Source: Gammaproteobacteria bacterium (GTDB lineage Bacteria; Pseudomonadota; Gammaproteobacteria; CAJXQU01). From it: a stretch of DNA of 64,000 bases. Every line of letters begins with the position of its first letter. Within the stretch, counting starts at the first letter, position 1. Below are positions 38,223-55,509 of this stretch, one piece after another. A program made the translations under genes and the position numbers. Location of the stretch: positions 2,048,001 to 2,112,000 of the forward strand of contig CBDEGZ010000003.1 of assembly GCA_965238175.1 (NCBI GenBank), given 5' to 3'. The notes under the pieces are model-generated. The model searched no databases and was not told where the DNA came from. It saw only the letters and a list, made by a program, of their open reading frames with translations.

Positions 38223-39556
38223 TGGACTTCCTCTTTATTAATTTGATCATTTCCTTCACTCAGTGATGATCCAGTTAAACGTTCAATTGAGATCACAACT
38301 TGGTGATATTCTTTGATCGAAGCAATAAGCTGCTGTCGTGTTTCAAAATAGGTGCGCTGAGCATCTAACAAGCTCAATAGATCAAGTTTGCCTAGACGAT
38401 ATATTTTTGTTGCTGCATCAAACGCTTGTTTTGCACTTGGCAAAATTTCATCATTTAGTGTTGTGACTTCGTGATCAAAAATCTTTAATCTTTGATATGT
38501 AATAAGTAATGAAGAACGTAATTTTGTCTCGGTTACTTGTTGTTGTTTTGACGAGCGATTTAGATCGAGTTCAGATAGTTGAACTCCCGTTTGTCTTTTA
38601 TCAAATATATACAAAGGAATTGAGATACCAGCGATTGCAGCGATATCGTCTGTTTCGTTTAAACGACGAATACCGGCACTTACTATGATATCTGGGATCG
38701 TGTCTGCTTGCGCCAGATTAATGGCATTTTCGTGACGACTTAACTCAGTAGCCCAGCGTGCCATTTCAGGATTATTGTTAATTCTGTCTGCGATAGTTGC
38801 TAATTGTGGTAATGGAGATATGCTATAAAAATCCCCTTGTACTTTATTGAAGGTAACATCAGTACCACCCCAACCAGTCACCAAAATTTGTTTTGAAATG
38901 GCTAACTGTCGTTCAGCATTGATCTGATTTAATTTTGATTTTGAAAGCTCAACTCTAGCTTTGATCTCTTCCAATGGTGAAACCTTGCCGGCTTTAACGC
39001 GCTTCTTTACAGTTTGATATATTTCTTCAGCAAGTTTTTTAATTTCCTTTGTGACAGCCAGCTTTTCTTGATCTGCAAGTACATCCGCATAAGCTATTGC
39101 TATTTGAGATAAGAGATCGATACGTTTAACTTCGTAATCCCATCGTGCAAGATCACGATCTGTAGATGCAAGTTGAAGACGTTTCATTCGTTTATCACCT
39201 AATTCAACTAGCTGGCTTAAACTGATGGTAGTTTCTGCTGAGCTTAAACCACTAAGCTCCCCAGAGCCGGCAAAGTTTTCCAGCTCTATTCCTGCTTCAG
39301 GATTCGGAGATAACCCGGCTTTAATCTGATCAATCTCTCTGGCTCTGATTGTCCAGGCATAGGTCGCTAATTCAGGATTGTTTTTAAGTGTCAGGACAAC
39401 TGCTTGTCTGAGTGAAAGGTCGCCTGTTGGTTGGATCAACGGTTGATCAAATTCTTCAGGTGCAATTTCTGGTGGCAATAATAATTCATTATTAACGGCT
39501 GTAACTGCTGTATGCATGAGACATGCAACAGCAAATATTAGTGTTTTTTTAAACAT
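38219..39556 (-). CDS. czcC: CzcC/TolC outer membrane factor
   Basis: NNPEL, PNPE, SQLVELGDKR, LLDAQRT. Confidence 0.9.
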   Translation of the reverse strand: MFKKTLIFAVACLMHTAVTAVNNELLLPPEIAPEEFDQPLIQPTGDLSLRQAVVLTLKNNPELATYAWTIRAREIDQIKAGLSPNPEAGIELENFAGSGELSGLSSAETTISLSQLVELGDKRMKRLQLASTDRDLARWDYEVKRIDLLSQIAIAYADVLADQEKLAVTKEIKKLAEEIYQTVKKRVKAGKVSPLEEIKARVELSKSKLNQINAERQLAISKQILVTGWGGTDVTFNKVQGDFYSISPLPQLATIADRINNNPEMARWATELSRHENAINLAQADTIPDIIVSAGIRRLNETDDIAAIAGISIPLYIFDKRQTGVQLSELDLNRSSKQQQVTETKLRSSLLITYQRLKIFDHEVTTLNDEILPSAKQAFDAATKIYRLGKLDLLSLLDAQRTYFETRQQLIASIKEYHQVVISIERLTGSSLSEGNDQINKEEVQ

Positions 39557-39650
39557 ATTTTTTTCTCTATCAACCAAATATATTCTTTCTTGTAAGCCTA
39601 AGTACAGAAAGGTTCGTCATAGTTTGAAAGCTACCTGTGGCAGCGAGAGA

Positions 39651-39965
39651 TTACGTGATAGGAGGGTGGTAAGGTGGTGGGTATTTATAGGAACTGTATA
39701 TTTTCATCCGAAAACTAAAAGTTCCTTTGATCTGTTTGCTCGTAATTGAAGGATTTTTTTGTAGTAGACCAACAGAATGTGAGGATAAATGACAGCAGTG
39801 ATCGCAAGCATTTGAGTCACTTTCATATTCAGTATCTATAGCATCTTTTTCAAATGAGTGATTATTTTGAGTTTCAGCTATTTCGTGCGCATAGGCGTGG
39901 ATAGGCAGGACAATTCCTGAGATGACCATTATTGCCAGTAATATTTTTGCCAATCGAATTCGCAT
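39651..39965 (-). CDS. CzcI-like small periplasmic metal-binding protein
   Basis: Signal peptide, HAYAH, CDHCCH, C-terminal PPPYHPP; sits upstream of czcC. Confidence 0.7.
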   Translation of the reverse strand: MRIRLAKILLAIMVISGIVLPIHAYAHEIAETQNNHSFEKDAIDTEYESDSNACDHCCHLSSHSVGLLQKNPSITSKQIKGTFSFRMKIYSSYKYPPPYHPPIT

Positions 39966-40055
39966 TCCCAGAATATGAACTAGTTACTTATAATTTTCAA
40001 ATCCACTAAGCATATTGGCCTTAAGTTTCCAACTAATAGATCAGGATAGTCTATA

Positions 40056-40126
40056 TTGTAATGGTCAAGAACTGCAGAAATAAAAAAAGTGGCTTAAATT
40101 CCTTCAAGATTACTTGACCATTACAA
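40056..40126. repeat. 71-bp segment with perfect 14-bp terminal inverted repeats (MITE/IS remnant?)
   Basis: TTGTAATGGTCAAG at 40056-40069 and CTTGACCATTACAA at 40113-40126. Confidence 0.55.
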
Positions 40127-40516
40127 GCTGAAGAATGCGGGTAGGGGGAATGATACTTTCCGACAAGAGATGTTATTTGGTTAGAGTTTGTTCAAGTATG
40201 ATTTTGCCCTGCTAAATAGAATATTGATTCTTGTATTTCATCAAAATGAAATAATTATTATCTACATTGTTACCCTGGTTACTTTATTCGGAAAATTAGC
40301 ATGGGGATCAAATGTGCTATCGTTTAATCAGAGGAAAACCGACAAACACGAGTTGATAGTCGATGTCCAGTGAATAAAGTAGGTGCTTGAAACGAAAGTG
40401 ATGGCGGGGAACGATGTCCTGACAGCAACTCAATAATTGTCCAAACAAGGCTTCATACCGTGAATCTAAGGTTTATCTTCGTTGATACGGTATGCATTTT
40501 GCTTTAAGCCTTTTCT

Positions 40517-42352
40517 ATGAAAAACTTCCTAATAGTTCCCTTTTTGTTGTTTCTTTTTTCTTGGGCCGGGCTTGTTTTGTCAGAAACGGAGAATGTCATA
40601 GCTGAGGAGCAGGATCTGTTCAGCTATGATGAAGAGGAATCATCAATCAGGGAAGATCCTAAAGATGTGAGTGAAACAGTTTTGGATGAAGCGGCGACTG
40701 CTCATCTTGAATTGTTCGCTGAAGATCGTTACCCATCAGCAAATACCTGTAAGGTCTGTCATCAGGATCACTATCGCGAATGGTCTGTGTCCCAGCATGC
40801 CTATGCCCAACTTAGCCCGGTTTATATGGCGATGCAAAATACCATCAATGCCAAGACCAGTGGTACTAATGGTGATTTTTGTATTCGCTGTCATACCCAG
40901 GTGGGTATGAATCTTGGGGAATCGACTTATATCTCTAATCTTGAACGTCATCCGACTTCACGTGAGGGTATCACCTGTGTTGTCTGTCATCGGATTAAAA
41001 ATGAATACGGCAAGGTATCAGGCCGAATTGCACTGGTGGAAGGTGATTTATTGACACCGGTTCACGGCCCGATGGGTAACAAGGAGCTAAAACGCGTACT
41101 AGATAATAAGAACGAATATCGGGTGGTTACCAAGGCCGATGAGAAAGGCCGTAAAATTCATACTGATGTTGGCCATTTTCCACAGCTTTCAACCTCCGGA
41201 TTTTGTGCTACCTGCCATGATGTGAATTTATTTAATGGTTTTCGATTGGAAGAGGCATTCTCTGAGTATAAAAATTCACCGGCGGCCAAACGAGGTGTCA
41301 GTTGTCAGGATTGTCATATGGGCACTGAGCAAGGAGCAGAATCTGAATATGCACATGGCCCGGCAGCACGGGTTGGTGGTGTTCCAACCAAGTCACGTAA
41401 GTTGACAAATCATTACTTTGCTGGCCCTGATGCTTCGATCATTCATCCTGGAATATTTCCTCATAATTCTGACGCCGTTGCCATGGCGACGATGGAGGAG
41501 TGGTTACAGTTTGATTATGAATCTGGTTGGGGAACAGACGAGTTTGAAGAACAGATCACCGATGATCAAACTTTTCCTGAACGATGGAAATCAATAGATG
41601 ATCGTTACGATGCACGGGCAATCATCAATAAACAGTTTGAATTACTCGACTGGGCAGATCAGCAACGTATACAGGTGATGCAAAACGGTTATAAGCTGGA
41701 TGAGATTGAAATCCAGCAGGCGAATAAAAAAGGCTTGGCATTTCGCATTAAGGTCAGTAATGGCACTGATGGCCATAATGTACCGACAGGTTTTGATGCA
41801 GAGCGTCTGGTCTGGCTTGAAATTACGGTGACAGATCCTGAAGGTAATACAGTTTTTCGTTCGGGAGATCTTGATCCTAATGGAGATCTGCGTGATAGCC
41901 ATTCGCTTTATGTACATAATGATCAGTTGCCGCTGGATAAACAATTATTTACGCTGCAATCGCGTTTTGTAACACGCAATATCCGTGGTGGTGAAAGAGA
42001 GCAGGTATTGACGATTAATTCCTCCCCGGATCCATTACCTTTTATTCGACCCTTTACTCGTTCGATTATGTTAACTGGACAACCTGCCGGAGTGCGAAAA
42101 CACCGACAAACGATCCCGCCACTCAGTGGCCGGTGGGCTAATTATAAAATTCCTGCCAAGGCTATTACTAGCAGCGGTGAATATCATCTTCAGGTTCGTT
42201 TAAAAGCCGCTGCCGTACCAGTCAATCTGATCGATGCGATTAAACAAGTAGGCTTTGATTATGGCATGTCAGCCCGACAGGTTGCGGCAGGTATCGTTGA
42301 TCAACATATGATGATCTGGGAAAAAGAAATGACATTTAAGATGGAACAATAA
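40517..42352 (+). CDS. Secreted pentaheme cytochrome c (c554/c552-like) with a large C-terminal domain
   Basis: Signal peptide; CKVCH, CIRCH, CVVCH, CATCH, CQDCH; GHNVPTG. Confidence 0.9.
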   Translation: MKNFLIVPFLLFLFSWAGLVLSETENVIAEEQDLFSYDEEESSIREDPKDVSETVLDEAATAHLELFAEDRYPSANTCKVCHQDHYREWSVSQHAYAQLSPVYMAMQNTINAKTSGTNGDFCIRCHTQVGMNLGESTYISNLERHPTSREGITCVVCHRIKNEYGKVSGRIALVEGDLLTPVHGPMGNKELKRVLDNKNEYRVVTKADEKGRKIHTDVGHFPQLSTSGFCATCHDVNLFNGFRLEEAFSEYKNSPAAKRGVSCQDCHMGTEQGAESEYAHGPAARVGGVPTKSRKLTNHYFAGPDASIIHPGIFPHNSDAVAMATMEEWLQFDYESGWGTDEFEEQITDDQTFPERWKSIDDRYDARAIINKQFELLDWADQQRIQVMQNGYKLDEIEIQQANKKGLAFRIKVSNGTDGHNVPTGFDAERLVWLEITVTDPEGNTVFRSGDLDPNGDLRDSHSLYVHNDQLPLDKQLFTLQSRFVTRNIRGGEREQVLTINSSPDPLPFIRPFTRSIMLTGQPAGVRKHRQTIPPLSGRWANYKIPAKAITSSGEYHLQVRLKAAAVPVNLIDAIKQVGFDYGMSARQVAAGIVDQHMMIWEKEMTFKMEQ

Positions 42353-42474
42353 TTGAATATGCACTCCATTAATATGTTGTTAATAGAAGAAATAGTAATG
42401 TAAGACAAATAGTTAAAATGACGTTATTTGTTATGACTTTTATATATCAATCATGTCACTTTTAAAGACAGGCA

Positions 42475-44415
42475 TTGCATTATCAGATGATGAAGAATGA
42501 TAGAAAGGACTACATAAAAATGGATATTGGCGTATCGCAGTTATTGCTAATTTCTACGAGGCATCAAAAAGTTCGGCAACGGAATTTATTGACGATTGGC
42601 CTTGTTATCATTATGCAATTGTTGATTATGCAAACCGTATTTGCGGCACAAATGCTAAATGATATAGGGTTTGTTTCTTTACCGAGTGAGCGCGTGCAGA
42701 TCCATATGGATTTCTCAGAAGTATTGAAGGAAGAGCTTCTCAGTTTTACGATTGATAGCCCATCAAGAATAGTGCTTGATTTTCTGGATACTACGGTGGT
42801 GCTCAAAGACAAAACTCAATTAATCGAGATGGGTTCAGCACATAGTGTAACTGCGATTGAGGCAAATGGCCTGACACGTGTTGTGCTAAATCTTGTGAAG
42901 ATGGTGCCTTATGAACTTAAAGTGGCGGGAAATATTGTCATTCTAACGTTGGGCAATTCTAAAGTATCGAAAATACTGAACCAAGCTGTTGATCAAGTGG
43001 CACCTTCAAACACGATGAGGCAAGAAAACAGTGATGTAGCTGAACAAATAGAAATAGCATCAGCATCAACTTCAGGACTACATCTTAGTGATATCGAGTC
43101 AGAAGCCCATGGTTTACGTTTGCCTGATCAGCCTGTACCTTATCTGGCGGATGAAGAATTGCCAGCGAGAGCAGCTCCACTGTTAGAATTAGGTGGTGAT
43201 TTTCTGGGCACAGGAAAGCTCAAGCCTGGTTTTGGCTTACCGACAGGAGCAGTGTGGCAGCCTCGCTTATGGGTGTATGGAACTCAGCGAACAGCGTTAC
43301 AGCATTACAGGGCAGGTAGCGGGCCTGCTGTCTCTGAATGGATGAATCGTCTGGATTTGTTTGGTAATTTACAACTTACGGGGACAGAACGTATCCTTAT
43401 CGGCTTTACACCCTTTCACGAAGATGATCAGTTTACCGGACAGGTTTTTGAACCGGGCTCGGAACGTGGCTTTAAAAATAACCTGAATCTAGATATTCAG
43501 ACGCTTTTTTTTGAGGGCGATTTAGCGGAGCTCTTTCCGAGGTGGGATTATAGAGATTCGACATCGAATGATCTGGGGTTTTCTATCGGACGACAGGAGA
43601 TCGTTTTTCAGGATGGAATATTGATCGCTGATACTCTGGACGGTGTAGGTATCTCTCGAAATAATGTGCGTTTTACAGGTGTTCCCTGGCTGGTTAATCT
43701 GCGAACTACCTTTTTCTTTGGCTGGGACGAGATCCACCGTAATGACAATCAGGAAGATCGTAATGCCAGTTTGTATGGTCTGTTCACGCAACTAGATACT
43801 TCGTTCAGTACCATTGATTTCGATATTGTTTATGTCGATTCGAATGATCTCGGCGGGGGAGATCTAATTTCTGCTGCAGTAGATTCGATTCAGCGTATTG
43901 GAAAAGTCAGTACGACGTTTCGTATTGCCGGTTCAAAGGCGCTGGATCAACGGACTGCTCAAGCTGACGACGGTGTATTACTGTTTACTGAAATCGCTTG
44001 GGTTCCTCCCTATACCCATAACCATGCTTACATTGATGCTTTTGTCAGCATTGATAACTTTACTTCAGCAGCGCGAGCACCACTTTCAGGCGGCCCATTA
44101 GGGCGTACTGGTCTATTATTTGCGGCATCAGGAATAGGTAGTGTGCCTCCCGCCATTGCTAATGGCACAGGGGATTCTTTTGGGATTATTGCGGGCTATC
44201 AACTATTTTTTGACAACGATAGGCGGCAGTTATTACTTGAAGTGGGTGGTCGTACTGGGGATGATCAAAAGCAGGTTGATACTGTCGGTGTTGGAGTTCG
44301 CTTACAACAGGCACTGGGCAGACGCTTTATTGTTGAACTTAGTAGTTATGCTGCCAAACCGGAGCATATGGATATGCAATATGGAACAAGGGGAGAATTG
44401 TTGATCAAGTTCTAA
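42475..44415 (+). CDS. AMIN domain fused to a putative outer-membrane beta-barrel (true start probably downstream)
   Basis: PilQ-like AMIN segment (FTIDSPSRIVLDF...TRVVLNL), amphipathic beta pattern, terminal Phe (GELLIKF). Confidence 0.7.
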   Translation: MHYQMMKNDRKDYIKMDIGVSQLLLISTRHQKVRQRNLLTIGLVIIMQLLIMQTVFAAQMLNDIGFVSLPSERVQIHMDFSEVLKEELLSFTIDSPSRIVLDFLDTTVVLKDKTQLIEMGSAHSVTAIEANGLTRVVLNLVKMVPYELKVAGNIVILTLGNSKVSKILNQAVDQVAPSNTMRQENSDVAEQIEIASASTSGLHLSDIESEAHGLRLPDQPVPYLADEELPARAAPLLELGGDFLGTGKLKPGFGLPTGAVWQPRLWVYGTQRTALQHYRAGSGPAVSEWMNRLDLFGNLQLTGTERILIGFTPFHEDDQFTGQVFEPGSERGFKNNLNLDIQTLFFEGDLAELFPRWDYRDSTSNDLGFSIGRQEIVFQDGILIADTLDGVGISRNNVRFTGVPWLVNLRTTFFFGWDEIHRNDNQEDRNASLYGLFTQLDTSFSTIDFDIVYVDSNDLGGGDLISAAVDSIQRIGKVSTTFRIAGSKALDQRTAQADDGVLLFTEIAWVPPYTHNHAYIDAFVSIDNFTSAARAPLSGGPLGRTGLLFAASGIGSVPPAIANGTGDSFGIIAGYQLFFDNDRRQLLLEVGGRTGDDQKQVDTVGVGVRLQQALGRRFIVELSSYAAKPEHMDMQYGTRGELLIKF

Positions 44416-44420
44416 CGACT

Positions 44421-45707
44421 ATGGAAAGAGATATACTATTTCAAGGATTAGCCTATATTGTCATATTTGCAGCTTTTGTGCAGTTGTTGGCCTTTTTATA
44501 TTCACTCTGGTGTAGCGTTGTACAGGCACGCGTGCAAAATGAGATTTCTATTCAGATGTTACGTCAACAGTTGGGGCAAGAGACATTGACTGCGGCACTT
44601 GAGCGTAGTCGATCAGAATCGGGTTGGACTGGTTTACGTAAATTCAGAATTGATGAGAAAGTTGATGAAGGTGCAGATATTTACTCATTCTATCTCAGCG
44701 CGCATGATGGCCAGATCATACCTTCTTTTCTACCAGGCCAACACCTGACTTTTCGTTTGCGGATACCGGGTAAGGATAAACTGGTGACCTGTTGCTACTC
44801 ACTGTCAGATAGCCCACAGACTGACAGATATCGCATCTCGGTTAAAAGACTCGCACCGCCTGATGAGCAACCAGATCTCCCTGCAGGTTTGGTTTCGGAT
44901 TATTTCCATCACCAGCTTGGAAAGGGTGATATTGTGGATGTCATAAGTCCTTCTGGGAAATTTTATTTGGATATGACCCGACATACACCGGTAGTATTGA
45001 TTGGAGCCGGGATAGGTGTCACACCCGTACTTAGTATGCTCAATAGTATTTGTCAGGCAAATATCCAACGGGAAACATGGTTCTTCTATGGTGTTCGCAA
45101 TAGCAATGAACAGATTATGCGACCTCATCTGGAAATGTTGGCCAATAATAATGAAAATGTACATATGCAGTTTTGCTATAGTCAGCCGCTACATAAAGAT
45201 GAACCAGGGATGGACTTTCATCATCCTGAACGAGTGAGTATAGAACTGTTGCAAAAAATATTACCCTCCAATAATTATGATTTTTACATTTGTGGACCGT
45301 TGGTAATGATGCAGTCCTTGGAAATAGGTTTGAAAGCTTGGGGTGTGCCCGATAATAAGATTCATATGGAGCGGTTTGGTCCTAGTAGTGGAAGTGCACA
45401 AATAGCAGCTAACCAAAAGGTTCTGTCATATAGCGGATCTCAATCATCAGAAGAGTATACGGTCAATTTTGCCCGATCAGGTAAATCAGTGAAATGGATG
45501 GGAACGACGGAAAATCTACTGGAGCTTGCAGAAGAACATGACATTATCATTGATAGTTGCTGTCGGTCTGGTAATTGCGGTACTTGTATGACGGAAATTA
45601 AGTCTGGTGAAATCGATTACCGTGGAATCTCTGAGATGGTGGTCGCTCCTGGATACTGTCTCCCTTGTATTGCCCGACCTTCATCGGATGTTATACTGGA
45701 CGCCTGA
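44421..45707 (+). CDS. Membrane-anchored FAD/NAD(P)-binding oxidoreductase with C-terminal [2Fe-2S] ferredoxin
   Basis: N-terminal TM; PGQHL, GAGIGVTP, YICGP, ERF; CRSGNCGTC...LPC. Confidence 0.9.
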   Translation: MERDILFQGLAYIVIFAAFVQLLAFLYSLWCSVVQARVQNEISIQMLRQQLGQETLTAALERSRSESGWTGLRKFRIDEKVDEGADIYSFYLSAHDGQIIPSFLPGQHLTFRLRIPGKDKLVTCCYSLSDSPQTDRYRISVKRLAPPDEQPDLPAGLVSDYFHHQLGKGDIVDVISPSGKFYLDMTRHTPVVLIGAGIGVTPVLSMLNSICQANIQRETWFFYGVRNSNEQIMRPHLEMLANNNENVHMQFCYSQPLHKDEPGMDFHHPERVSIELLQKILPSNNYDFYICGPLVMMQSLEIGLKAWGVPDNKIHMERFGPSSGSAQIAANQKVLSYSGSQSSEEYTVNFARSGKSVKWMGTTENLLELAEEHDIIIDSCCRSGNCGTCMTEIKSGEIDYRGISEMVVAPGYCLPCIARPSSDVILDA

Positions 45708-45758
45708 GTTACAGATTATTCCCAAAGGCTACTAGAAATATTTAAATGGAGGTTAATA

Positions 45759-46769
45759 ATGAGCCATCTTAATTCAAAAAATATGTTACTTAGATTATGT
45801 GTGGGAGTTACATATCTGCTGTTTTCACGGTGTGTCTCGGCAACTCAGGATCTGCATTTGAATCCAGAAAAGGTTAAAGGCCCCGATGCTTGTGGCGAAT
45901 GCCATGAAGATGAAATGGCTATCTGGAAAAAAACTAAACACTCCACAACCTTTACCAAGTTACCACGCAAGGAAAAGGCTAAGGAAATTGCAGATAGAAT
46001 GGGTATTAAACGGATCAAGGCTGATAGTGATTGTCTGAATTGTCATTTCACCAGTGACCTTGTGGGGGAAAAAGTTAAACCTATTGCCGGCATTACTTGT
46101 GAATCATGTCATTCTGCCGGGCAAGACTGGATTGATGGACATAGTGACTTTGGTGGTAAAGATGTGAAAGCTGAAGATGAAACGTCAGAACACAAAAAAC
46201 AACGCTATGCAGAGGCAGAAAAGGCCGGAATGATCCGACCGAAAAATCTCTACGATCTAGCTCGAAACTGTTTTTCCTGCCATACGGTACCTAACGAAAA
46301 ACTGGTAAATATTGGCGAGCATAAAGCGGGAAGTAAGTTTGAATTGGTGCGTTGGAGTCAGGGTGATCTCAGGCATAATGTTTGGTATTCAAAGGAGAAC
46401 AAAGAGGCTTCCCTGGAGCGACGTCGAATGATGTTTCTGATCGGACAAGTGTTGGATCTTGAATATGGTCTGCGTGGACTTGCCAAGGCCACAAAAAAGG
46501 CTGCTTATGCCACCGCAATGGCCAAGCGAACACAATCTGCTCAACGCAGAGTTGAAAAGCTGGCAACTGTAGTTGAGTCAAAAGAGTTAAATACAATTGT
46601 TGAAACTGTAAAAAATACTGATCTCAAGTTGAATAATAGTAGTTCACTTTTAGCAGCAGCTGACAAAATTTCCAGCTTGGCACAACAGCTGGTTAGCAAA
46701 TATGATGGTAGCCAGTTTGTAGGTTTTGATGCATATTTACCCAAACCTGAAAAATATAAAAAGAATTGA
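45759..46769 (+). CDS. Secreted tetraheme cytochrome c (c554-like)
   Basis: CGECH, CLNCH, CESCH, CFSCH; helical C-terminal half. Confidence 0.9.
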   Translation: MSHLNSKNMLLRLCVGVTYLLFSRCVSATQDLHLNPEKVKGPDACGECHEDEMAIWKKTKHSTTFTKLPRKEKAKEIADRMGIKRIKADSDCLNCHFTSDLVGEKVKPIAGITCESCHSAGQDWIDGHSDFGGKDVKAEDETSEHKKQRYAEAEKAGMIRPKNLYDLARNCFSCHTVPNEKLVNIGEHKAGSKFELVRWSQGDLRHNVWYSKENKEASLERRRMMFLIGQVLDLEYGLRGLAKATKKAAYATAMAKRTQSAQRRVEKLATVVESKELNTIVETVKNTDLKLNNSSSLLAAADKISSLAQQLVSKYDGSQFVGFDAYLPKPEKYKKN

Positions 46770-46833
46770 GTTATCAAGGCTATGCTGACGGGCATGAATA
46801 AACTATAAAAGGTTCTCATCAGTATCAGTCACT

Positions 46834-48561
46834 ATGAACAGAGATATTACATCAATTAAACGCCCAAAAAGATGGGATACCCCTTTCTGTGAAGATATGG
46901 ATGATGCCAAGATTCAGCAGGTGTTATTGCATGAACCCTTTGCCAGTATGGATCGAACACGTTTCCCCCAAAATCTGTCGCTAGAAGGGATCTTGAAGAA
47001 TGATTGCCGGGTGCGTACCTATCGTGATGCAGAAGTTGTCATACGTGCAGGTGATTATGGCCACTCTGCTTTTTTTATCTTAAGTGGTCATGCCAGGGTA
47101 ATCCTTCCAACAAATTTACCTGATGAATTATTGGGTAGAAGCACTATAAAGAAAAAAAATATTTTTAGATCTATCGCCCAATTGTGGACCAATGATCACT
47201 ATCCTGAGGTACGAAATGTTGGTCAATATAAATCGGGTAACACGGAAAATAAAATAGATAATAATGATGAAGTACGTATTTTTTTACAGGATATTCCTGG
47301 TGTTATAAACAGGAACCATTCTACGGTCTTAGAAACTGGAGATATATTTGGAGAGGTTGCAGCACTATCACGTAGCTCGCGTGAAGCCACGGTTATTACT
47401 GAAGGTAAAACAGTTTTGTTGGAAATGCGTTGGGCAGCGTTACGAGATATTAGAAAGTGGATCAATGAATTCCGCTTACATGTTGATCGCCTTTACCGTG
47501 AACAAAGCCTGGTTTCTCATTTGCAGTCAACGGAGTTATTTACCCACTTAAGTCTTGATATTATTGAACATATTGCCGAGCAAACTTTATTTGAATCTCA
47601 CGGTGATTTTGAGTGGTATAAAGAATATAAAAAACAGTTAAGTTCGAGCGAGCCCTCCAGCCGGATCGATAATGCGCCAGTAATCGTTGCTGAAGGTGAT
47701 TACCCAGACGGATTATTATTGATCAGATCTGGTTTCGCCCAGGTTGTAAAGAAAATCAACCATGGTTTTATGACGATGGAATATTTGGGCAGAGGGGCTA
47801 GCTTCGGCTTGGGTGAGATCATTGAGCATTCTCAGGGAAATTCAAAGATCACCTCCAAAACTGGTTTACGAGCGTTGGGATATACGGATGTTTTACGTGT
47901 ACCTACCTTCCTGATCGAAAAATATGTGCTTCCCAACCTTTCACAGAGCAAACGTGTCAAGTTGATCAACACGTACAAAACGATTGCACTAGAAAGTGAT
48001 GAGAATAGTATCCCTGAAGCACCAGTCGATACAGGTTTGCTGGAATTTTTTGTCGAGCACCACTACATTAATGGTGAGGCTACGATGTTGATCGACCTTG
48101 ATAAATGTACACGTTGTGACGAATGTGTGGTGGCATGTGCCACGGCACATAACAACAATCCCCGCTTTAATCGACACGGTGAAACCTATGACCATTATAT
48201 GGTGGCCAATGCCTGTATGCAGTGTTCTGATCCTGTATGCATGATCGGCTGTCCGACAGGTGCCATTCACCGATCAACGACAACAGGTACAGTCACTATC
48301 AACGACAGCAGCTGTATAGGTTGTTCAGTCTGTGCTAATGCGTGCCCTTATAATAATATTCGTATGGTACCTATCAGGGATCAACAGGGAGAACGTATTT
48401 TGGACAAGGATACCAATGTCCCTATCACTAAGGCCACCAAATGTGATCTATGTATAGCTCAGCCTGGCGGGCCTGCTTGTCAGCGTGCATGCCCACATGA
48501 TGCTCTGACCAGGGTGGATATGCATGACTTACCAAAGCTGGCAGAATGGTTAAACCGTTGA
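46834..48561 (+). CDS. Tandem cyclic-nucleotide-binding domains fused to an NrfC/DmsB-type 4x[4Fe-4S] domain
   Basis: FGEVAAL..SSREATV, second CNB-like EGD...IRSG...FG; CTRCDECVVAC, CMQC..PVCMIGCP, CIGCSVCANACP, KCDLC...PACQRACP. Confidence 0.88.
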   Translation: MNRDITSIKRPKRWDTPFCEDMDDAKIQQVLLHEPFASMDRTRFPQNLSLEGILKNDCRVRTYRDAEVVIRAGDYGHSAFFILSGHARVILPTNLPDELLGRSTIKKKNIFRSIAQLWTNDHYPEVRNVGQYKSGNTENKIDNNDEVRIFLQDIPGVINRNHSTVLETGDIFGEVAALSRSSREATVITEGKTVLLEMRWAALRDIRKWINEFRLHVDRLYREQSLVSHLQSTELFTHLSLDIIEHIAEQTLFESHGDFEWYKEYKKQLSSSEPSSRIDNAPVIVAEGDYPDGLLLIRSGFAQVVKKINHGFMTMEYLGRGASFGLGEIIEHSQGNSKITSKTGLRALGYTDVLRVPTFLIEKYVLPNLSQSKRVKLINTYKTIALESDENSIPEAPVDTGLLEFFVEHHYINGEATMLIDLDKCTRCDECVVACATAHNNNPRFNRHGETYDHYMVANACMQCSDPVCMIGCPTGAIHRSTTTGTVTINDSSCIGCSVCANACPYNNIRMVPIRDQQGERILDKDTNVPITKATKCDLCIAQPGGPACQRACPHDALTRVDMHDLPKLAEWLNR

Positions 48562-49379
48562 TGAGATTACCGAAGTTTGTTATTAAACTTTTGTTCGTGA
48601 TTATTCTTGCTATTATCATATGGTTTTTAATTAGTGCTAGGCAGATTAACCTTGAGGCTCAGCAGTATTTCTCTGGCTGGCTTCTGGTAAGCAGTATCTT
48701 GTTGTTAATGCTCTATGGCATTCGTAAAAGATTCTCTATGTTGCCGTTGAAATCCAATGCATGGTGGTTGCAGCTACATATTTATCTGGGCATGTTGACA
48801 ACTTTGGTGTTTTTTTGTCATGTCGAGTGGTCTTTGCCCAATGGCTGGTTGGAAACAACACTGTATATTCTTTTCATCAGTATTCTTCTGAGTGGTTTAA
48901 TTGGGCTGTATCTGAGTAAAACCATACCGCGGAAGCTCACACAACGTGGTGGGGAAGTGATCTATGAACGTATCCCCAGTTTTATCAGGGAATTGCGCGA
49001 GGAAGCACAACAGCTTGTCGTGGAAACCACCAGAAAGACAGGTTCTTCAACCCTGGCTGATTTTTATCTTAATCATCTTGCTGGTTTTTTTGCTAAACAG
49101 AGAAATTTTTCCAGGCATTTAATCCGATCACATAGCCAGATGGTCAAGTTACTGGAAAAGCTGGAGGATCTGGAAAGGTATTTGGATCCAGAGGAGCGAA
49201 GATATGCAAGACAATTTGCTGTATTAGTAAAGAAAAAAGATTATCTTGATTATCACTACGCATTGCAGTTTTTACTCAAGGGTTGGTTGTTGATCCATGT
49301 GCCTCTGATCTCCGGAGTGTTCGTTTTTCTGTGTATGCATGTGGTTTTGGTTTACGCATTTCATAGCGCAGTACAGTGA
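48561..49379 (+). CDS. Polytopic membrane protein, putative di-heme cytochrome b
   Basis: About 6 TMs with His in WLQLHIY, FFCHV, WLLIHVP, CMHVV; TGATG coupling to the upstream gene. Confidence 0.7.
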   Translation: MRLPKFVIKLLFVIILAIIIWFLISARQINLEAQQYFSGWLLVSSILLLMLYGIRKRFSMLPLKSNAWWLQLHIYLGMLTTLVFFCHVEWSLPNGWLETTLYILFISILLSGLIGLYLSKTIPRKLTQRGGEVIYERIPSFIRELREEAQQLVVETTRKTGSSTLADFYLNHLAGFFAKQRNFSRHLIRSHSQMVKLLEKLEDLERYLDPEERRYARQFAVLVKKKDYLDYHYALQFLLKGWLLIHVPLISGVFVFLCMHVVLVYAFHSAVQ

Positions 49380-51610
49380 ATTATATCCCGCTACAAAAAT
49401 TTGACTACCTTAGTAGTCCCTATGCGCGGCCTAATGATAAATGGACTTGTGGTCGAGCCCGTGAAGGTAAACCCTGCCCCCTGGGACCCAATAAGAAAGG
49501 TCACTGCCAGGCTACTTATGAATGTCACCCACATAAGAAAGATGAACGTTGGCTCTGTAGCCGTTCTTCACTACATGGAGGGCGGTGTGAAAATGGGCCA
49601 TTACCTGACGGTGTTTGTTGCCGCAAAATTGAGCGTTGTTGTCCTACCCGTAGCTGGCGGGCCAGGCGTAGCTATATCAGTCGATGGTTTTTTGTATTAT
49701 GTCTGGGCATCTTGGTGCTACTGTTGTTCGGATCAGATAGGGCCGCATTTATAAGTCCGGGTAAATTAACCGCCAGCCATGCTGGTATTGAAGACTGCAA
49801 GAATTGCCATAGTGCCTTTGAAAAGGGGGTGACACATTGGCTGCAGTCAGCACTTAAACTGGATGCCGGTACAGATGACAGTCAGCGTTGTCTATCATGT
49901 CACGTTATCAAGAAAAATGCACAAAGTCCTCATAATCTGGATAAAGATTCTTTAGAAGGATTAACCCGCGAGGCTACGGTAGCCAGTGAAAAGCTGTTCA
50001 TGCCCTATCTGTCTATTGCAACAGGGTTACTACCTGCAAAAGAGCAGCATGGGACATTAACCTGTGCCCTCTGTCATCGGCAACACCAAATGGGTGAAAC
50101 AAACTTTTCAGGTATTAAGGAGCAACGTTGTCAGGTTTGTCATACAGCACAATTTGAGAGCTTTGCAACGGGCCATCCTGAATTTAATCGCTTTGCCTAC
50201 TCGCAGCGTACCCCGATTAATTTTGATCATACCAGCCATTTATATAAACACTTTGAGGATGAAAAGTATAAGGATCAGGCTCAAAAAGAGTGTCTTGAAT
50301 GTCACCAACCGGATGCCGAGGGCCACAGCATGCTAGTAGATTCATTTGATGCGGTTTGTAGTGGGTGTCATCGTTCACAGATCATGGGACAGGAACGATC
50401 AGGCTCGAAAGGTGTGGTCGTGATGAATGTGCCAGGTCTGGATCTGGAAGTTTTGCGTGCAAATGATTTATTGATTGGGAGTTGGCCAGTGTCTTCAGAC
50501 GAAGAACTCACTCCCTTGATGGCCTTATTGTTATCAGCTGATCCTGCCTTCGTTAAGGCACAAAAGCAGCTTGTTGATATCGATCTAATGGATCTATCTT
50601 TGGCAACGGAAGAACAGTTGAAAGCAGTGGTTGATATAGGTTGGTGTATTAAACAATTTCTATTGGCGTTGACAGAACTAGGGACGACTGAGATTAAAAG
50701 AAGATTGGAAATTCTCAGTGAAGAGAAGTTATCTCGAATTCAGATGAAATCTCTGTTGGCATTGCCAGAGGATGTTTTACGCAGTGCACAGCAGCAATGG
50801 TTTCCGCAGTTAATGGAAGAGATGCATCTTTTCGAGGTTGGAGATACTAAGGCTTTACTGCAACTTGGAAAGGTAGTTGATAAAAGTCCGATACCAGTAG
50901 TCCACGATACAGAGAAGCAATCGAAATTAACGTTGGAGTCAGATGAACTTATTTTAGAAGAAGAGTTGCCCCTTGGTGAGAATGATGCTGCCCTTTTTAC
51001 TGAACAAGATGAAGATGATCCCTTTGCTGAAGAAAAATCGACTGAACAAACGAGTATTGCTCCTGTACGACTTGAAGCTGAACAATGGGCAGCTTTTGGT
51101 GGTTGGTTCCGTGGTGATTTTTCTTTATCTTATGCGCCACAGGGACATGCCGATCCCTTTCTAAAACATTGGATAGACTACTTGGCAAGTCAAAAAAACC
51201 ACTTTGAGAAACGTGGTTTTCAAGCTCTTATGAAAGGCACCCCGCCTGGAGCATGTAATAAGTGCCATAGTATTAGTCGCCTAGAAGCTGGTGGAGTTAC
51301 AGTAAACTGGGCATCAGAAGACAAAAAGAGGCTGATGGTTCCCGGTTTTACCAAATTTTCACATACTTCTCATTTTTATACGGCCGATGGTAAGGGGTGT
51401 GAAAATTGTCATATGATTGATAAGAAAGCGGACTATGCTGCGAGTTATGAACAAGATGATCCACATAGTTTTAAAAGCAATTTTAAACCTATACAACGCC
51501 AGGAATGTACGGCCTGTCATCAACAAGGATTAGCAGGGGACACTTGTTTACAGTGCCACAATTATCACGTAACAGATATTCTCTATGAGCTCATGCCAGA
51601 GAAGCATTAA
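49376..51610 (+). CDS. Membrane-anchored decaheme cytochrome c with a Cys-rich N-terminal domain
   Basis: 10 CxxCH (6+4, split by a heme-free acidic region), one TM, 10 Cys before the TM. Confidence 0.9.
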   Translation: MNYIPLQKFDYLSSPYARPNDKWTCGRAREGKPCPLGPNKKGHCQATYECHPHKKDERWLCSRSSLHGGRCENGPLPDGVCCRKIERCCPTRSWRARRSYISRWFFVLCLGILVLLLFGSDRAAFISPGKLTASHAGIEDCKNCHSAFEKGVTHWLQSALKLDAGTDDSQRCLSCHVIKKNAQSPHNLDKDSLEGLTREATVASEKLFMPYLSIATGLLPAKEQHGTLTCALCHRQHQMGETNFSGIKEQRCQVCHTAQFESFATGHPEFNRFAYSQRTPINFDHTSHLYKHFEDEKYKDQAQKECLECHQPDAEGHSMLVDSFDAVCSGCHRSQIMGQERSGSKGVVVMNVPGLDLEVLRANDLLIGSWPVSSDEELTPLMALLLSADPAFVKAQKQLVDIDLMDLSLATEEQLKAVVDIGWCIKQFLLALTELGTTEIKRRLEILSEEKLSRIQMKSLLALPEDVLRSAQQQWFPQLMEEMHLFEVGDTKALLQLGKVVDKSPIPVVHDTEKQSKLTLESDELILEEELPLGENDAALFTEQDEDDPFAEEKSTEQTSIAPVRLEAEQWAAFGGWFRGDFSLSYAPQGHADPFLKHWIDYLASQKNHFEKRGFQALMKGTPPGACNKCHSISRLEAGGVTVNWASEDKKRLMVPGFTKFSHTSHFYTADGKGCENCHMIDKKADYAASYEQDDPHSFKSNFKPIQRQECTACHQQGLAGDTCLQCHNYHVTDILYELMPEKH

Positions 51611-51794
51611 TCCTGTAAACTCAACCTGTAGTGGCGAGGAAATGCATAATGTTCTCACGCACTGAATGAGCGAATTAAAAATGGGTAGCTTAGGTCATTG
51701 AATCAGGTAAAAGAGTCAGCTGAGGATCTTAGATGTACGACTTTGTTTCAGATCATGATCTATAACTTGATTATGAATTTAGCTTCAATATGGA

Positions 51795-51821
51795 AATAGC
51801 CTTATTTGAAATAAGGCTATT
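51795..51821. terminator. Inverted repeat, likely bidirectional terminator
   Basis: AATAGCCTTATTT-G-AAATAAGGCTATT between convergent genes. Confidence 0.65.
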
Positions 51822-51830
51822 CATTAAACC

Positions 51831-52982
51831 CTATTGGTTAATGGCTTTACAGATAACAAACTTAGAGTTTGATGCCTCAATGGATGAATTACCAAACAGT
51901 TTTTTCAACTTTTGGTTATAATTCAAGTGACGATTTCCGATTATCCAAAGTTCGCCACTTTGGCGCAAAATATTTTTAGCTTGCTTAAACATGCGTAGTG
52001 CAACTTGATCCGAATTTGCATGTTGCTGATGAAATGGCGGGTTACAGAGAATCAGATCTGCTGAGTTTTGATCAAAGTCACTAAGAGCATCGCCAACACA
52101 GTAAATAGCACTTTTATGATCAGGAAATGCGGATTCAAAAGTTTCCTTTGCCGAAGCAACGGCCATAAATGATTCATCAACGAAATGAATATTCGCATTC
52201 GGGTGAGTTTCTGCCAACTTGAGCCCAATAACTCCATTGCCACAGCCAAGATCAATTATGTTTTTTACTTTGGGCTTTTTAGGTAAATGTTCGATCAAAA
52301 ATCGCGTGCCTATATCCAGACTACGATGTGAGAATACATTGGCATGATTACAGATCCGGTAATTTGTATTTTCTAATGTGTAATAAACTGGATAAGGGCA
52401 GGGTGGTACTACCCTTTCAGGATCTGCTGTTACGAATATAAGTCGAGCTTTTTTCTTGGCTAACGATGTTGTGGTCGGTCCGATATATTTTTCTAGCAGA
52501 TTCCAAACATTTTTGGGTAAGTTTTTAACCATACCTGCCGCGATAATTTTCGTGTTTTGTGAAAGGTTAGTCTGAAGTCTGGACAGTTGCTCCTCTAAAA
52601 GAGCCAGTGTTTTAGGAATTTTGATTAATACCAGATCAAATATTTCATCCGTTGTTTCAAGACTATTAAGAAATGATAACTTAGCTTCAGGTAAATCATT
52701 ATTGACTAAGTTATTTCGAGCAGCTTGTTGTGAAATAAAAGAATCTGACGAATTGTATAAATTACAGTTATTGAATGCGAGTGTTAAAGCACCAAAACTA
52801 TCGTTAAAAATCATTAATTTAAAATTGTTTTTTAATTTTATTTCTTTAGATAGGTACTCAAGTACATACTCATCAGCCGCATCCCAGGCACGTAATCGCT
52901 CTCTGGGATGTTCTGGAAAGCGTAAGAGAAGAAAATCTCCTTGAGGAACAATTAATCTATTATTCTGTAGCCGAGCGTTCAT
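51831..52982 (-). CDS. rlmG: 23S rRNA m2G1835 methyltransferase
   Basis: LRAWDAADEY, NDSFGAL, LDIGTR, DLGCGNG, CNPPFHQ. Confidence 0.92.
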   Translation of the reverse strand: MNARLQNNRLIVPQGDFLLLRFPEHPRERLRAWDAADEYVLEYLSKEIKLKNNFKLMIFNDSFGALTLAFNNCNLYNSSDSFISQQAARNNLVNNDLPEAKLSFLNSLETTDEIFDLVLIKIPKTLALLEEQLSRLQTNLSQNTKIIAAGMVKNLPKNVWNLLEKYIGPTTTSLAKKKARLIFVTADPERVVPPCPYPVYYTLENTNYRICNHANVFSHRSLDIGTRFLIEHLPKKPKVKNIIDLGCGNGVIGLKLAETHPNANIHFVDESFMAVASAKETFESAFPDHKSAIYCVGDALSDFDQNSADLILCNPPFHQQHANSDQVALRMFKQAKNILRQSGELWIIGNRHLNYNQKLKKLFGNSSIEASNSKFVICKAINQ

Positions 52983-53069
52983 TTTGAGACATTCTTAGTT
53001 TCATATTGAGAAATGGAATAAAAGCTGATTAATTATCATTTTGAGACATACCATTCCCGGTATGTCTCA
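52966..53069 (-). repeat. Putative Mu-type right end with transposase-binding sites
   Basis: TGT at 52966; CATTTTGAGACAT at 52980, CATATTGAGAAAT at 53002 (22-bp period), CATTTTGAGACAT at 53037, inverted ATGTCTCA at 53062. Confidence 0.7.
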
Positions 53070-53133
53070 TCTCCATTTTGGCGCTAATTAGTCACGGTTT
53101 AATCGCCGATTAATAACCGTTTAATTTCTCGGG

Positions 53134-53862
53134 TTAATATTTTATGCAGTACATTACTGAAATATTTTTGGGATTAAATCCGTTTTCAGACAAATCCAAA
53201 ACCTGCTCTTCAGTGTTGTCGTTAAATACGGTGTCATTAAAGCGCACCGCATCAATTACAGGTATCGTGCCCAATTGAGTTTCGAAGGTTTGGGTGCTTA
53301 TGGATATATCTGCACCTTTAACATCTTGAAACTCACCCATAACTCGTCCAGGATCGACGCCTTCTCCATTATCCCAAGCGCGGAGAAATTGGCCTCGAAA
53401 ATTGGGAGCTCTAAAAGTTGTTGCTCCATCACCTGTGCTGAAAGCTCCGAACATACCGTTATTAAGGTAATCGTCATCACTAACTAATTTAAAGTTATTC
53501 TCAGGTCTATTGATCCAGTCCCAGAGTCTTTCATTTGTAACGCGTGATAATTCGTCGTCACAGCACTCCAAACTTCCTGCAGGTGGTGTTTCGCCTACGT
53601 GCAGGTATGGCACACCGAGTCCTGATAATTGTAATATGGCTTGAAACAATTGACTGAAATCTCCTTTCGTTTGGTCTGGCTCAAGCCCTGCCCCGGTGAC
53701 GACATTATAGAGTTCCTGCTGGACCATATTAAACCAGTCTTGGCCCGGAACGGTGGCTGGTTGCGAGCCATCTGTCGAGCCTTTTACAAAGTGCCCCGGC
53801 GCACCTTCTGGTTGTATTGCAGGTAATGATGATACGGCTGTTGGGGTGTCTACTAAATGCAT
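53134..53862 (-). CDS. Short tail fibre / tail collar protein
   Basis: Mu S-like N-terminus (WFNMVQQEL) and collar motif GDGATTFRAPNFRGQFLRAWDNG.GVDPGR. Confidence 0.85.
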   Translation of the reverse strand: MHLVDTPTAVSSLPAIQPEGAPGHFVKGSTDGSQPATVPGQDWFNMVQQELYNVVTGAGLEPDQTKGDFSQLFQAILQLSGLGVPYLHVGETPPAGSLECCDDELSRVTNERLWDWINRPENNFKLVSDDDYLNNGMFGAFSTGDGATTFRAPNFRGQFLRAWDNGEGVDPGRVMGEFQDVKGADISISTQTFETQLGTIPVIDAVRFNDTVFNDNTEEQVLDLSENGFNPKNISVMYCIKY

Positions 53863-53872
53863 TTCATTTCTC

Positions 53873-54451
53873 CTAAACGTAACTGAATAATACGGTGGTA
53901 TGAGCAGGTTTGAGTCGCGTCATCAGGCACTCTAAAAGCTCATTTCCCCATGTCCTTAATGGTTCATCACAGCCAGAATTGACGGTGAATTCGGTTATGG
54001 TTTCGAGCGGTGCGACGACTATCCAGGTGAAAACGATATCTTCTTCCCAAAGAGCGTCGTCTACGCTGCTATCGACAGTAAAAGGACGTAGTTCTTGGAT
54101 GCTTATATCGAAGTTGGCTCGCTTGGCCACCCCGATGTAATATTGTCGAGATTGACCGCCGATTCTGGTGACTTTTTCATGCAGTGCTTTTTGTCTGCCT
54201 GCTATGGTTGTGGGTGGCGACAAACAGGGTTCTGGCAGCGCAAAAGCACGCTCCCATTCGTTGAGTAATTGGACGGTAGTACGTGGGTCAGTTTCTTCGA
54301 TTAATTCAAAGGCTCTTTGCTCGATTGCGGCGAATTCTACCGCCAGCGATTCGAGTGTTTCATCCAATACTGATCCCGGCTCGGATAACCACGCTGCACC
54401 TGTTGTTAGCAGTGCTTTTAGCTGTTGTGTGTAATGTCGGATTCTACTCAT
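53873..54451 (-). CDS. Mu gp48/YmfQ (DUF2313) baseplate protein
   Basis: LL..G.AW, LLNEWER, GGQSRQYY, LEC....KPAHT. Confidence 0.9.
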   Translation of the reverse strand: MSRIRHYTQQLKALLTTGAAWLSEPGSVLDETLESLAVEFAAIEQRAFELIEETDPRTTVQLLNEWERAFALPEPCLSPPTTIAGRQKALHEKVTRIGGQSRQYYIGVAKRANFDISIQELRPFTVDSSVDDALWEEDIVFTWIVVAPLETITEFTVNSGCDEPLRTWGNELLECLMTRLKPAHTTVLFSYV

Positions 54452-55509
54452 TATGCAAATGTCACTGTGCCAAGTTCAGGCATCTCGTTTGTTGCGTGGG
54501 TGACATTATTGGATGGCATTGTGATTTGGTGATCGTTCTCGCCAGAGGCTATCGAAACAGCCTCGCGAATATGTGATATTAAAACGGTCTGACCTGGTTC
54601 AGATTCACGAGCGAACATCGCCAACAATTCCGCCTGAACCGCTGCCTGTGTTGTTGCGTTATTAGGTGATAATCCCGTAATTTCAATATCGACATTAACG
54701 GCTACAGGTGCGACAACAGTGACGACAGCAGTAACCGGTCTAAGACCTTGTATATACGCGTCGACTTCGGCAACTTTTGCCGGATTTGGAATAAAGCCTG
54801 CAGGATCATTATCAGTCACAAATCTCACAACAACCGTGCCATCACCCGCCTCCATTGGGTAGACCCATGCGCGCGTTACACCAGCCACTTGTAACGCCCA
54901 TTGAATATAGTCAAAGCTGGCCCCACCGTGTGGTGGTTGTTGAATTCTGGCCAGTAATCTTTTACGCAGATCATCATCTGATTCGGCAGATGATCCACCA
55001 GTGATTGCAGCACTATCAACGGTGGCTGTTGAGCTGATTCCGGCGATGGGTGAGACCAGCGTTAATTGCGTCGCAGCATCGATGTTTCCGATATCACCAC
55101 CCTCAACGGCGATGATGACCATATCGAGGCTGGTAGCCGTAAAAGTTGCTTCCTCAACGGTTGTAAATTCGACGTTATCCTGACGTTGCAATTTCGTATT
55201 TTTCGGGATAACTAATCCGGCAGAACCGGTGAATGTAACAACGCCTGTCGCCTGTGCTGCAGGCTTTGGTTTTATGCCCCATATGTCGGCCTGACGTTGC
55301 AGAAATTCCGCCTCTGATGTGTCTGGAAAAAACTGTCTCGCCAGCCAATTTAAAAAGCCGTACAGGCCATTAGTTGCCGCCGCGTGGATGCGTGATAACA
55401 CGTTAAGATTTGAGCGGCGTAATTTAGCATCGACACCGGGTAGTCGAGTTTCAAATTCGCTGGTGGCACGCGCTATTAATTCGGTTATTGTGGGTACGTT
55501 ATAGGCCAT
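54451..55509 (-). CDS. Baseplate J / Mu gp47
   Basis: ESDDDLRKRLL.RIQQPPHGG...DY.QWAL.V.GV.RAW. Confidence 0.93.
   Translation of the reverse strand: MAYNVPTITELIARATSEFETRLPGVDAKLRRSNLNVLSRIHAAATNGLYGFLNWLARQFFPDTSEAEFLQRQADIWGIKPKPAAQATGVVTFTGSAGLVIPKNTKLQRQDNVEFTTVEEATFTATSLDMVIIAVEGGDIGNIDAATQLTLVSPIAGISSTATVDSAAITGGSSAESDDDLRKRLLARIQQPPHGGASFDYIQWALQVAGVTRAWVYPMEAGDGTVVVRFVTDNDPAGFIPNPAKVAEVDAYIQGLRPVTAVVTVVAPVAVNVDIEITGLSPNNATTQAAVQAELLAMFARESEPGQTVLISHIREAVSIASGENDHQITMPSNNVTHATNEMPELGTVTFA

Follow-up and report, generated by a model that had tools for sequence, protein, structure and literature searches.

What does a cluster that encodes an NAD(P)H reductase, 19 c-type hemes and an outer-membrane barrel do with its electrons? 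This question is raised by seven genes in a 64,000-nucleotide stretch of a gammaproteobacterial genome (contig CBDEGZ010000003.1 of GenBank assembly GCA_965238175.1, positions 2,048,001 to 2,112,000, forward strand; hereafter the window), which an earlier note, made from the sequence alone, had read as a complete and uncharacterised trans-envelope electron conduit. The cluster is genuine and belongs, as a new member, to a family that has been named but is functionally uncharacterised: in the available text of both sources, it is gene for gene subgroup II of PCC4 (He 2017) and ptdABCDEFG (Elbon 2024), whose gene names are used here. The word uncharacterised therefore holds for its function but not for its being undescribed. 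We lean towards reading this member as an NAD(P)H-driven electron-export chain that ends in a periplasmic enzyme, PtdA, with PtdB as a solute pore.

A conserved cluster with two published names

All seven genes are intact open reading frames on the same strand:

ptdA, 40517-42352, + strand: 611 aa; exported pentaheme cytochrome c with a C-terminal immunoglobulin (Ig)-like domain, of the MccSep (ExtKL)/5ZE8 family
ptdB, 42475-44415, + strand: 646 aa; outer-membrane barrel of about 18 modelled strands, OprD/Occ/AlgE-like, with the barrel at about 43264-44409
ptdC, 44421-45707, + strand: 428 aa; membrane-anchored FNR-family reductase binding flavin adenine dinucleotide (FAD) and NAD(P)H, with a C-terminal [2Fe-2S]
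ptdD, 45759-46769, + strand: 336 aa; exported tetraheme cytochrome, c554-like, with a helical C-terminal part
ptdE, 46834-48561, + strand: 575 aa; cytoplasmic protein with two cyclic-nucleotide (cNMP)-binding domains and four predicted [4Fe-4S] clusters, HycB3/HydN-like
ptdF, 48546-49379, + strand: 277 aa; inner-membrane diheme-b protein of a ferric-reductase-like type (the PCC4 'IMP')
ptdG, 49376-51610, + strand: 744 aa; membrane-anchored decaheme with six hemes, a heme-free insert and four hemes

The gaps between them, from ptdA to ptdG, are 122, 5, 51, 64, -16 and -4 nt. The 19 c-type hemes that had been counted earlier are present as 5, 0, 0, 4, 0, 0 and 10 CXXCH motifs (A to G), and Pfam finds c554-type heme domains in genes 1 and 4, FAD_binding_6, NAD_binding_1 and Fer2 in gene 3, and cNMP_binding and Fer4 in gene 5. 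Export signals of PtdA, PtdB and PtdD were judged from hydropathy or by eye. One public contig is identical over 40000-52000 of the window, without a difference, though this assembly may itself derive from that contig. Run X2 leaves about 49.5-51.6 kb uncovered.

A scan of public genome contigs for PtdE returned 74 loci, whose names place them in Alpha- and Gammaproteobacteria, Planctomycetota, SAR324 and further groups; 34 of the loci had enough flanking sequence for their neighborhood to be analyzed. The seven genes stand together in 21 of these 34, as expected of the one conserved functional unit that had been proposed, and the order seen in the window is kept in 14 of the 21. E-F-G is contiguous in 33 of the 34 flanked loci and ptdA lies directly before ptdB in all 40 loci with matches to both, while the positions of ptdC and ptdD vary. 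Heme counts of five, four and ten are retained in 33/35, 55/55 and 56/59 complete orthologs of PtdA, PtdD and PtdG, respectively; because these counts recur and the genes stay linked across loci, the set is not a chance assembly. TIR/TPR-SLT, thiamine-pyrophosphate-enzyme and glutamate dehydrogenase neighbors were judged to be lineage synteny.

Elbon, Stewart and Glass (bioRxiv 10.1101/2023.11.21.568154) list seven ptdABCDEFG products and call their function unknown in the text available, and their gene order and domain list are those of the window, from a pentaheme with a beta-sandwich to a decaheme by way of the porin B, the FAD/NAD(P) oxidoreductase C, the cNMP and 4Fe-4S protein E and the ferric-reductase-like F. 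Their homology of PtdA to the Thermochromatium tepidum pentaheme c552 (5ZE8) is likewise found here (E 1.8e-10 by sequence, E 1.5e-15 with profile A1), and related loci from metagenome-assembled genomes of oxygen-deficient zones, for example L021, hold all seven homologs. In such a zone ptdAB is reported to be highly transcribed (bioRxiv 10.1101/2023.11.21.568154). The window copy differs in that its PtdB bears a PilQ-like AMIN N-terminus, PtdE is counted there with two 4Fe-4S clusters where 16 conserved Cys here point to four, and we saw no counterpart in that text for the PtdG Cys domain, the barrel size or the heme-2 site described below.

The available text on PCC4 (He, Barco, Emerson, Roden 2017; PMC5566968) describes a porin, periplasmic multihemes of 4, 5 and 10 hemes, an inner-membrane protein with two WX3HX13H motifs and SGXXG that is compared to ferric reductase/NOX; in subgroup II the gene of this protein is immediately preceded by a PF13247 Fe-S gene. 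The window cluster has the porin and the 4/5/10-heme set, and its PF13247 gene upstream of ptdF is ptdE (Fer4_11 34.2 bits, cut-off 26.2). No published functional test of PCC4 or ptdABCDEFG was found in a search that left most subscription journals outside, and the cluster goes unmentioned in a 2026 preprint on Ferrigenium.

The inner module and the relay cytochromes

The cytoplasmic placement of the NAD(P)H-flavin module, which the earlier note had assumed, agrees with the charge bias of PtdC: Lys and Arg are richer after than before its N-terminal transmembrane segment in 49 of 57 orthologs (N-out/C-in). Its NCBIfam matches, flavohemoprotein and PaaE-like, are below cut-off. The four [4Fe-4S] clusters predicted for PtdE are well supported by its sequence, with 16 Cys in four groups that are each kept in 40-41 of 41 aligned orthologs; the best PDB match of the Fe-S part is HycB3 (E 6e-25) and the cNMP part matches PKA/PKG. 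The first cNMP pocket, at about 47350-47391, is intact (E174 in 40/41 and R183 in 41/41 orthologs), and the second is degenerate and lacks the Arg.

PtdF, noted earlier as a 4-His membrane protein, has the pattern of a diheme-b protein, and its four His are invariant in 47/47 orthologs. Two WX3HX13H motifs occur in all 47 and SGXXG in 40, the window protein reading W74-H78-H92, W247-H251-H265 and S116GLIG. The likeness to the membrane domain of ferric reductases lies in motifs only; PF01794 gave no match at E 0.1, and a PDB sequence search with the PtdF profile returned nothing significant.

The decaheme PtdG is anchored by a transmembrane segment at residues 101-119, and the insert between its hemes 6 and 7 measures 198-906 aa in 56 orthologs. 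Its similarity to MtrA is weak and composition-biased (E 3e-6). Before the anchor lies a domain that had been overlooked:

PtdG duplicated four-Cys module (eight Cys), 49421-49663, + strand: on the cytoplasmic side, before the transmembrane anchor

Each of these Cys is present in 33-35 of 38 aligned orthologs, and the module is probably a metal or Fe-S site. Searches with it gave no significant Pfam or PDB match and no usable Atlas match, while 627 clusters match it; among the best 150 of these, all 107 long proteins carry at least six CXXCH motifs and 97 carry ten. The domain is absent or halved in PtdG of L062, L064, L123 and L124, and is thus dispensable in some lineages.

PtdD matches cytochrome c554 (1BVB) at E 2.3e-14 by profile and has four non-motif His that are invariant in 45/45 sequences, making it a probable bis-His carrier. 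In three loci (L044, L045 and L046) a DUF4384 domain is fused to PtdD at its N- or C-terminus. No protein of the 3.35 Mb host genome other than PtdA, PtdD and PtdG has more than three CXXCH motifs; the genome also has a CcmF-type maturation gene.

The pentaheme PtdA and the barrel PtdB

PtdA is one of a large family (3156 relatives among 8000 scored candidates), and the relative that informs its function is MccSep, which profile A1 reaches at E 7-8e-4 (9WT8/9WT9), with three aligned stretches. According to the available text (bioRxiv 10.1101/2025.11.18.688581 = PMC13510729), MccSep has been proven to reduce polysulfide in the periplasm, its hemes 1, 3, 4 and 5 are bis-His-ligated and its heme 2 has His/Cys239; the active site is formed by heme 2 and an Ig-domain loop that bears the selenocysteine Sec325, and the Y-shaped heme core is enzyme-like. 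The five-heme domain and the Ig-like domain are common to PtdA, and the heme-2 and Ig-loop segments of MccSep both align with PtdA and are conserved in it. In comparison with MccSep and 5ZE8, PtdA is about 150 aa longer, and it has neither the heme-2 Cys nor a Sec or Cys in the Ig loop, where the Sec position is Phe or Ser. The residue of interest is:

PtdA Glu245, 41249-41251, + strand: coincides with or adjoins the site of the axial Cys of heme 2 in MccSep

MccSep C239/C240 align to Leu244/Glu245 of PtdA, and the single Cys of 5ZE8 in this place aligns to Glu245. Glu245 is found in 151 of 151 five-heme PtdA sequences, none of which has a Cys in the heme 4-5 spacer, and Cys outside CXXCH is missing from the window PtdA and from 149 of the 151 orthologs. 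H94, H215, H299 and H420, present in 41-42 of 42 sequences, are available as ligands for the four carrier hemes. Heme 2 would then be open or Glu-ligated, which suggests that PtdA is catalytic. R124, R144, R149, E150, R159, E245 and H310 are each present in 42/42. The earlier note had left it that either the pentaheme is catalytic or the end partner is external, and these observations fit a catalytic pentaheme better. A polysulfide reductase of the MccSep type was ruled out for PtdA, which has no Cys or Sec for it, as was a nitrite reductase of the NrfA type, there being no CXXCK. PtdA sequences form two subtypes that differ in the Ig-loop sequence, and one genome (G064) holds two divergent ptdA paralogs (L085 and L089).

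The product of gene 2 was proposed to be a transmembrane barrel, and an AlphaFold2 model (41-row alignment, barrel blocks mostly at pLDDT 85-97) together with structure searches agrees: the C-terminal 380 residues of PtdB fold into a barrel in which we count 18 strands. Its top VIA matches are OpdQ (Z 27.4, root-mean-square deviation 2.8, 317 aligned residues), MOMP (26.7), OccAB3 (26.2) and AlgE (24.2); Foldseek also ranks OprD/Occ channels, MOMP, AlgE and chitoporin first, and the Atlas search gave an alginate-export cluster with a family share of 31%. A PDB sequence search with the PtdB profile found nothing significant. MtrB is not among the best 50 VIA matches or the Foldseek matches listed, where a weaker match is possible. 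The MtrB barrel has 26 strands (PMC12133095) and conduit barrels are given 24-32 by He et al. (PMC5566968) in the text available, a range for MtrAB-type barrels outside which 18 strands fall. By strand count and best matches, the PtdB model resembles an OprD/AlgE-like solute porin more than a 26-strand MtrB sheath.

These features bear on a true trans-envelope conduit, the reading of the earlier note and of Elbon et al. in the text available. In it a thin heme chain, for which the C-terminal tetraheme of PtdG is one candidate, would run through PtdB and reduce minerals, electrodes or partner cells. We regard this as improbable. The OprD-like fold of about 18 strands speaks against it, ptdB travels with the globular PtdA and not with PtdG, the ten-heme PtdG persists in genomes without ptdB, and neither a lipoprotein nor a surface cytochrome was seen (a lipobox-like pattern occurs in 1 of 120 PtdA matches). 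Smaller barrels do accompany cytochromes in Geobacter and Cyc2, which counts for such a conduit, as do the MtrA-like heme spacing of PtdG and its long variable insert, which could span the periplasm. In addition, PtdA-family relatives in cable bacteria have been proposed, in the text available, to be nanowire-like. A solute pore for the substrate of PtdA would have a counterpart in Geobacter, where the porin gene extI lies in the same cluster as the pentaheme MccSep/ExtKL and loss of ExtI lowers selenite and tellurite reduction (PMC5877670, in the part available).

The N-terminus of PtdB in the window is peculiar to this copy:

PtdB signal peptide and AMIN domain, 42562-42969, + strand: closely related to the N-terminus of host PilQ

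The 165 N-terminal residues, comprising signal peptide and AMIN domain, are 64% identical to host PilQ over 136 aa (68% over 492 nt), and have no counterpart in the 119 other top PtdB homologs or in any locus open reading frame. The Pfam match is weak in the whole protein, and the isolated domain scores 20.9 bits against a cut-off of 20.5. A local fusion seems likely; misassembly was rejected, as the nucleotide identity to pilQ is only 68%. AMIN domains function in cell-wall anchoring, and this one may anchor the PtdB pore to the cell wall. Five PtdB homologs (P0157, P0159, P0160, P0167 and P0191) have a different extra N-terminal domain that is SPOR-like by eye and has no Pfam match.

Modularity, direction of electron flow and comparison with known systems

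In a separate sample of 400 genomes from the phylum of the host, ptdE was found in 13 and ptdA in two. Three of the 13 have ptdB, one of them with ptdA probably lost at a contig end, and the other ten, at 95-100% completeness, have neither ptdA nor ptdB and keep D-E, plus C, F and G where contigs allow. With A and B missing beside (C)DEFG in 10 of the 13 ptdE genomes, the terminal module appears exchangeable. Among the 34 flanked loci of the contig scan, 13 lack A or B; a full PtdA was found elsewhere in nine of the ten genomes checked. The part of the conduit reading that stands is the conserved unit with a cytoplasmic NAD(P)H module and a diheme-b protein; its last step, a multiheme inside the barrel, is weakened both by the solute-porin-like PtdB of about 18 strands and by these inner modules that have no barrel.

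All ten ptdAB-less genomes contain magnetochrome domains of the magnetosome type, which are found in none of the three ptdB genomes nor in the host. In the sample, ptdE occurs in 10 of the 40 genomes with magnetochrome domains and in 3 of the 360 without, counts for which no statistic is claimed, as the carriers are kin. In three of the ten, a different, 5ZE8-like pentaheme (E 2.4e-51, one tested) adjoins ptdD upstream (L117:5589-6743, L119:5549-6730 and L122:3805-4950), with a short heme 4-5 spacer and the Cys-bearing loop deleted. The ptdAB-less cores are L114-L123 (genomes G072, G095, G099, G103, G107, G138, G142, G158, G214 and G406); PtdD has three CXXCH motifs in seven of these loci, and heme 1 reads CX3CH in at least two of them.

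In the chain that we favor, PtdC would oxidise cytoplasmic NAD(P)H through its FAD and [2Fe-2S] and hand electrons one at a time to the four [4Fe-4S] clusters of PtdE, where the intact cNMP pocket probably gates the flow. The two b hemes of PtdF would carry electrons over the inner membrane, as in the membrane domain of ferric reductase/NOX, and PtdG and PtdD would relay them across the periplasm to PtdA, which would reduce a small solute at heme 2, with an invariant Glu on the distal side and no MccSep-type Cys. By analogy with the role considered for ExtI beside MccSep, PtdB would be a substrate-specific pore for this solute; candidates are an Fe(III) chelate, an N- or S/Se-oxyanion, NO or peroxide. 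The sequences and the model show cofactor motifs and how conserved they are, the topology bias, the barrel fold and gene linkage; we infer subunit contacts, direction, gating and heme-2 catalysis. The outward direction is favored on redox and membrane-potential grounds. Outward flow from NAD(P)H spends proton-motive force and does not build it, and such a chain would therefore likely serve assimilation, detoxification or a low-oxygen redox valve, not respiration.

Class III cyclase genes lie inside 14 of the 74 loci and lend modest support to cNMP control of the cluster. In planctomycete loci L010, L018, L023, L024, L033 and L055 the cyclase is divergent and just upstream of ptdC, and in L055 it is the sole one found in the genome at E 1e-8.

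Several observations weigh against the export chain. The cyclase excess in flanked loci (10 of 34, against 1.2-1.8 expected from genome copy numbers) is mostly kinship, coming from about five lineages that include four planctomycete, two Rhodospirillales and two Roseibium loci; the catalytic domain is seen in 7 of the 10, and the nearest cyclase in the window is 17.7 kb from the cluster. The Arg of the cNMP pocket is not matched by the search pattern in 3 of 13 extra PtdE sequences, and PtdC was not found at the complete-genome locus L124. His310 (42/42) or His63 (39/42) could ligate heme 2, which would make PtdA a plain carrier, and the alignment with MccSep is weak, its true ligand C239 falling on Leu244 and not on Glu245. 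Finally, quinones could instead be the redox partners of PtdF, which is what He et al. propose in the text available.

The last point belongs to the model of the PCC4 authors, who propose inward flow from Fe(II) to quinone (PMC5566968, in the part available), whereas we favor outward flow. A periplasmic donor such as Fe(II), Mn(II), hydroxylamine or a reduced sulfur species would enter via PtdB and be oxidised at PtdA, its electrons reaching quinone by PtdD, PtdG and PtdF, with PtdC and PtdE as a side branch. We consider this unlikely: the tight core is E-F-G and not A-B-F, which ties the membrane protein to the cytoplasmic Fe-S relay, transfer from a high-potential donor to NAD(P)+ would oppose both redox and membrane potential, and most carriers, by their record titles, are not known iron oxidisers. 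On the other side, a distal Glu serves as base in some heme oxidation enzymes such as cytochrome P460, PtdD is like c554, the partner of hydroxylamine oxidoreductase, the invariant residues of PtdB are more often acidic than basic, and the host carries Sox genes and methanethiol oxidase. PCC4 is also found in Zetaproteobacteria and Hyphomicrobium (PMC5566968, in the part available), to be compared with a host here that, by gene content, is a C1- and sulfur-oxidising aerobe.

The 19 c hemes, the intact cNMP pocket, the cyclase neighbors and the occurrence in 10 of 40 magnetochrome-bearing genomes, from organisms that track redox gradients, would also suit a redox capacitor or sensor, a chain with no substrate of its own that takes up or discharges excess reducing power and links the redox state of the envelope to signalling by cyclic nucleotides. 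This is very unlikely, as strict conservation at the putative active site of PtdA and a dedicated porin point to a specific reaction and no output domain is encoded.

A bolder form of the export chain is tentative. The cluster would be a NOX-like exporter gated by cNMP, in which a C-E-F-G core with an undescribed eight-Cys metal domain feeds an end module that can be exchanged. PtdA would represent a novel multiheme enzyme class, with heme 2 as an open His/Glu site and a pore of its own, and in magnetotactic bacteria the core without PtdAB would possibly reduce ferric iron for magnetosomes. The cluster is widespread at marine redox gradients and is, in the literature available, a candidate wire for metal oxidation or metal reduction. 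If it is instead an NAD(P)H-spending chain with a catalytic pentaheme, its presence should not be taken to indicate extracellular electron transfer, and it would point to an abundant periplasmic reaction that awaits identification. PtdA E245 and H310, PtdE R183, the PtdG Cys domain and the natural ptdAB-less variants are handles on function, and Roseibium aggregatum (L036) is a cultured marine carrier; the window copy itself adds little beyond its AMIN fusion.

The host, a gammaproteobacterium by its named closest homologs, encodes methanethiol oxidase, SoxA/B/C/Y, sarcosine-oxidase-like proteins, an aa3 oxidase and a pyrroloquinoline quinone alcohol dehydrogenase, and a MauG/MbnH-like diheme gene follows methanethiol oxidase (G000:C3, about 1406900-1410300). 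PtdA was not found in six congeners searched, making the cluster patchy even within the genus. Plasmid searches gave only partial PtdE matches, none reaching 80% coverage, and a very recent transfer is not supported, as codon use and G+C content at third positions are only mildly atypical in the seven genes. No FNR box (0-1 mismatch) lies upstream of ptdA, and sigma-70-like sites occur at chance frequency. Elsewhere in the window we observed:

9154-10683 and 21076-22783: VWA-FHA protein, PP2C phosphatase and a cyclase-FHA fusion, a Ser/Thr signalling set
23112-28279: IS3, IS481 and IS30 transposases, the IS30 abutting an ABC-F ATPase gene that is shortened at its N-terminus
32410-39965: Rieske oxygenase alpha subunit (GbcA-like) and CzcCBA-type metal efflux, the efflux genes divergent from ptdA
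51831-64000: rlmG, followed by prophage genes of higher GC for baseplate, tail and the large terminase subunit

When the cluster is set beside known electron chains, it shares with MtrCAB, MtoAB and PioAB a decaheme and an outer-membrane barrel encoded together; it differs from them in a barrel of about 18 and not 26 strands, a decaheme with an inner-membrane anchor, the presence of NAD(P)H and cNMP modules, and the lack of a surface cytochrome. The FRE/NOX superfamily offers the other comparison, in which an NAD(P)H-FAD module feeds a two-heme-b membrane domain with HX13H pairs, and the pairing of MsrQ with Fre, again an NAD(P)H-FAD module and a two-heme-b membrane domain, can be likened to the Ptd core. 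In contrast to FRE/NOX, the Ptd system is split into three proteins, places five Fe-S clusters between flavin and heme b, has a cNMP domain and uses c-type hemes as acceptor.

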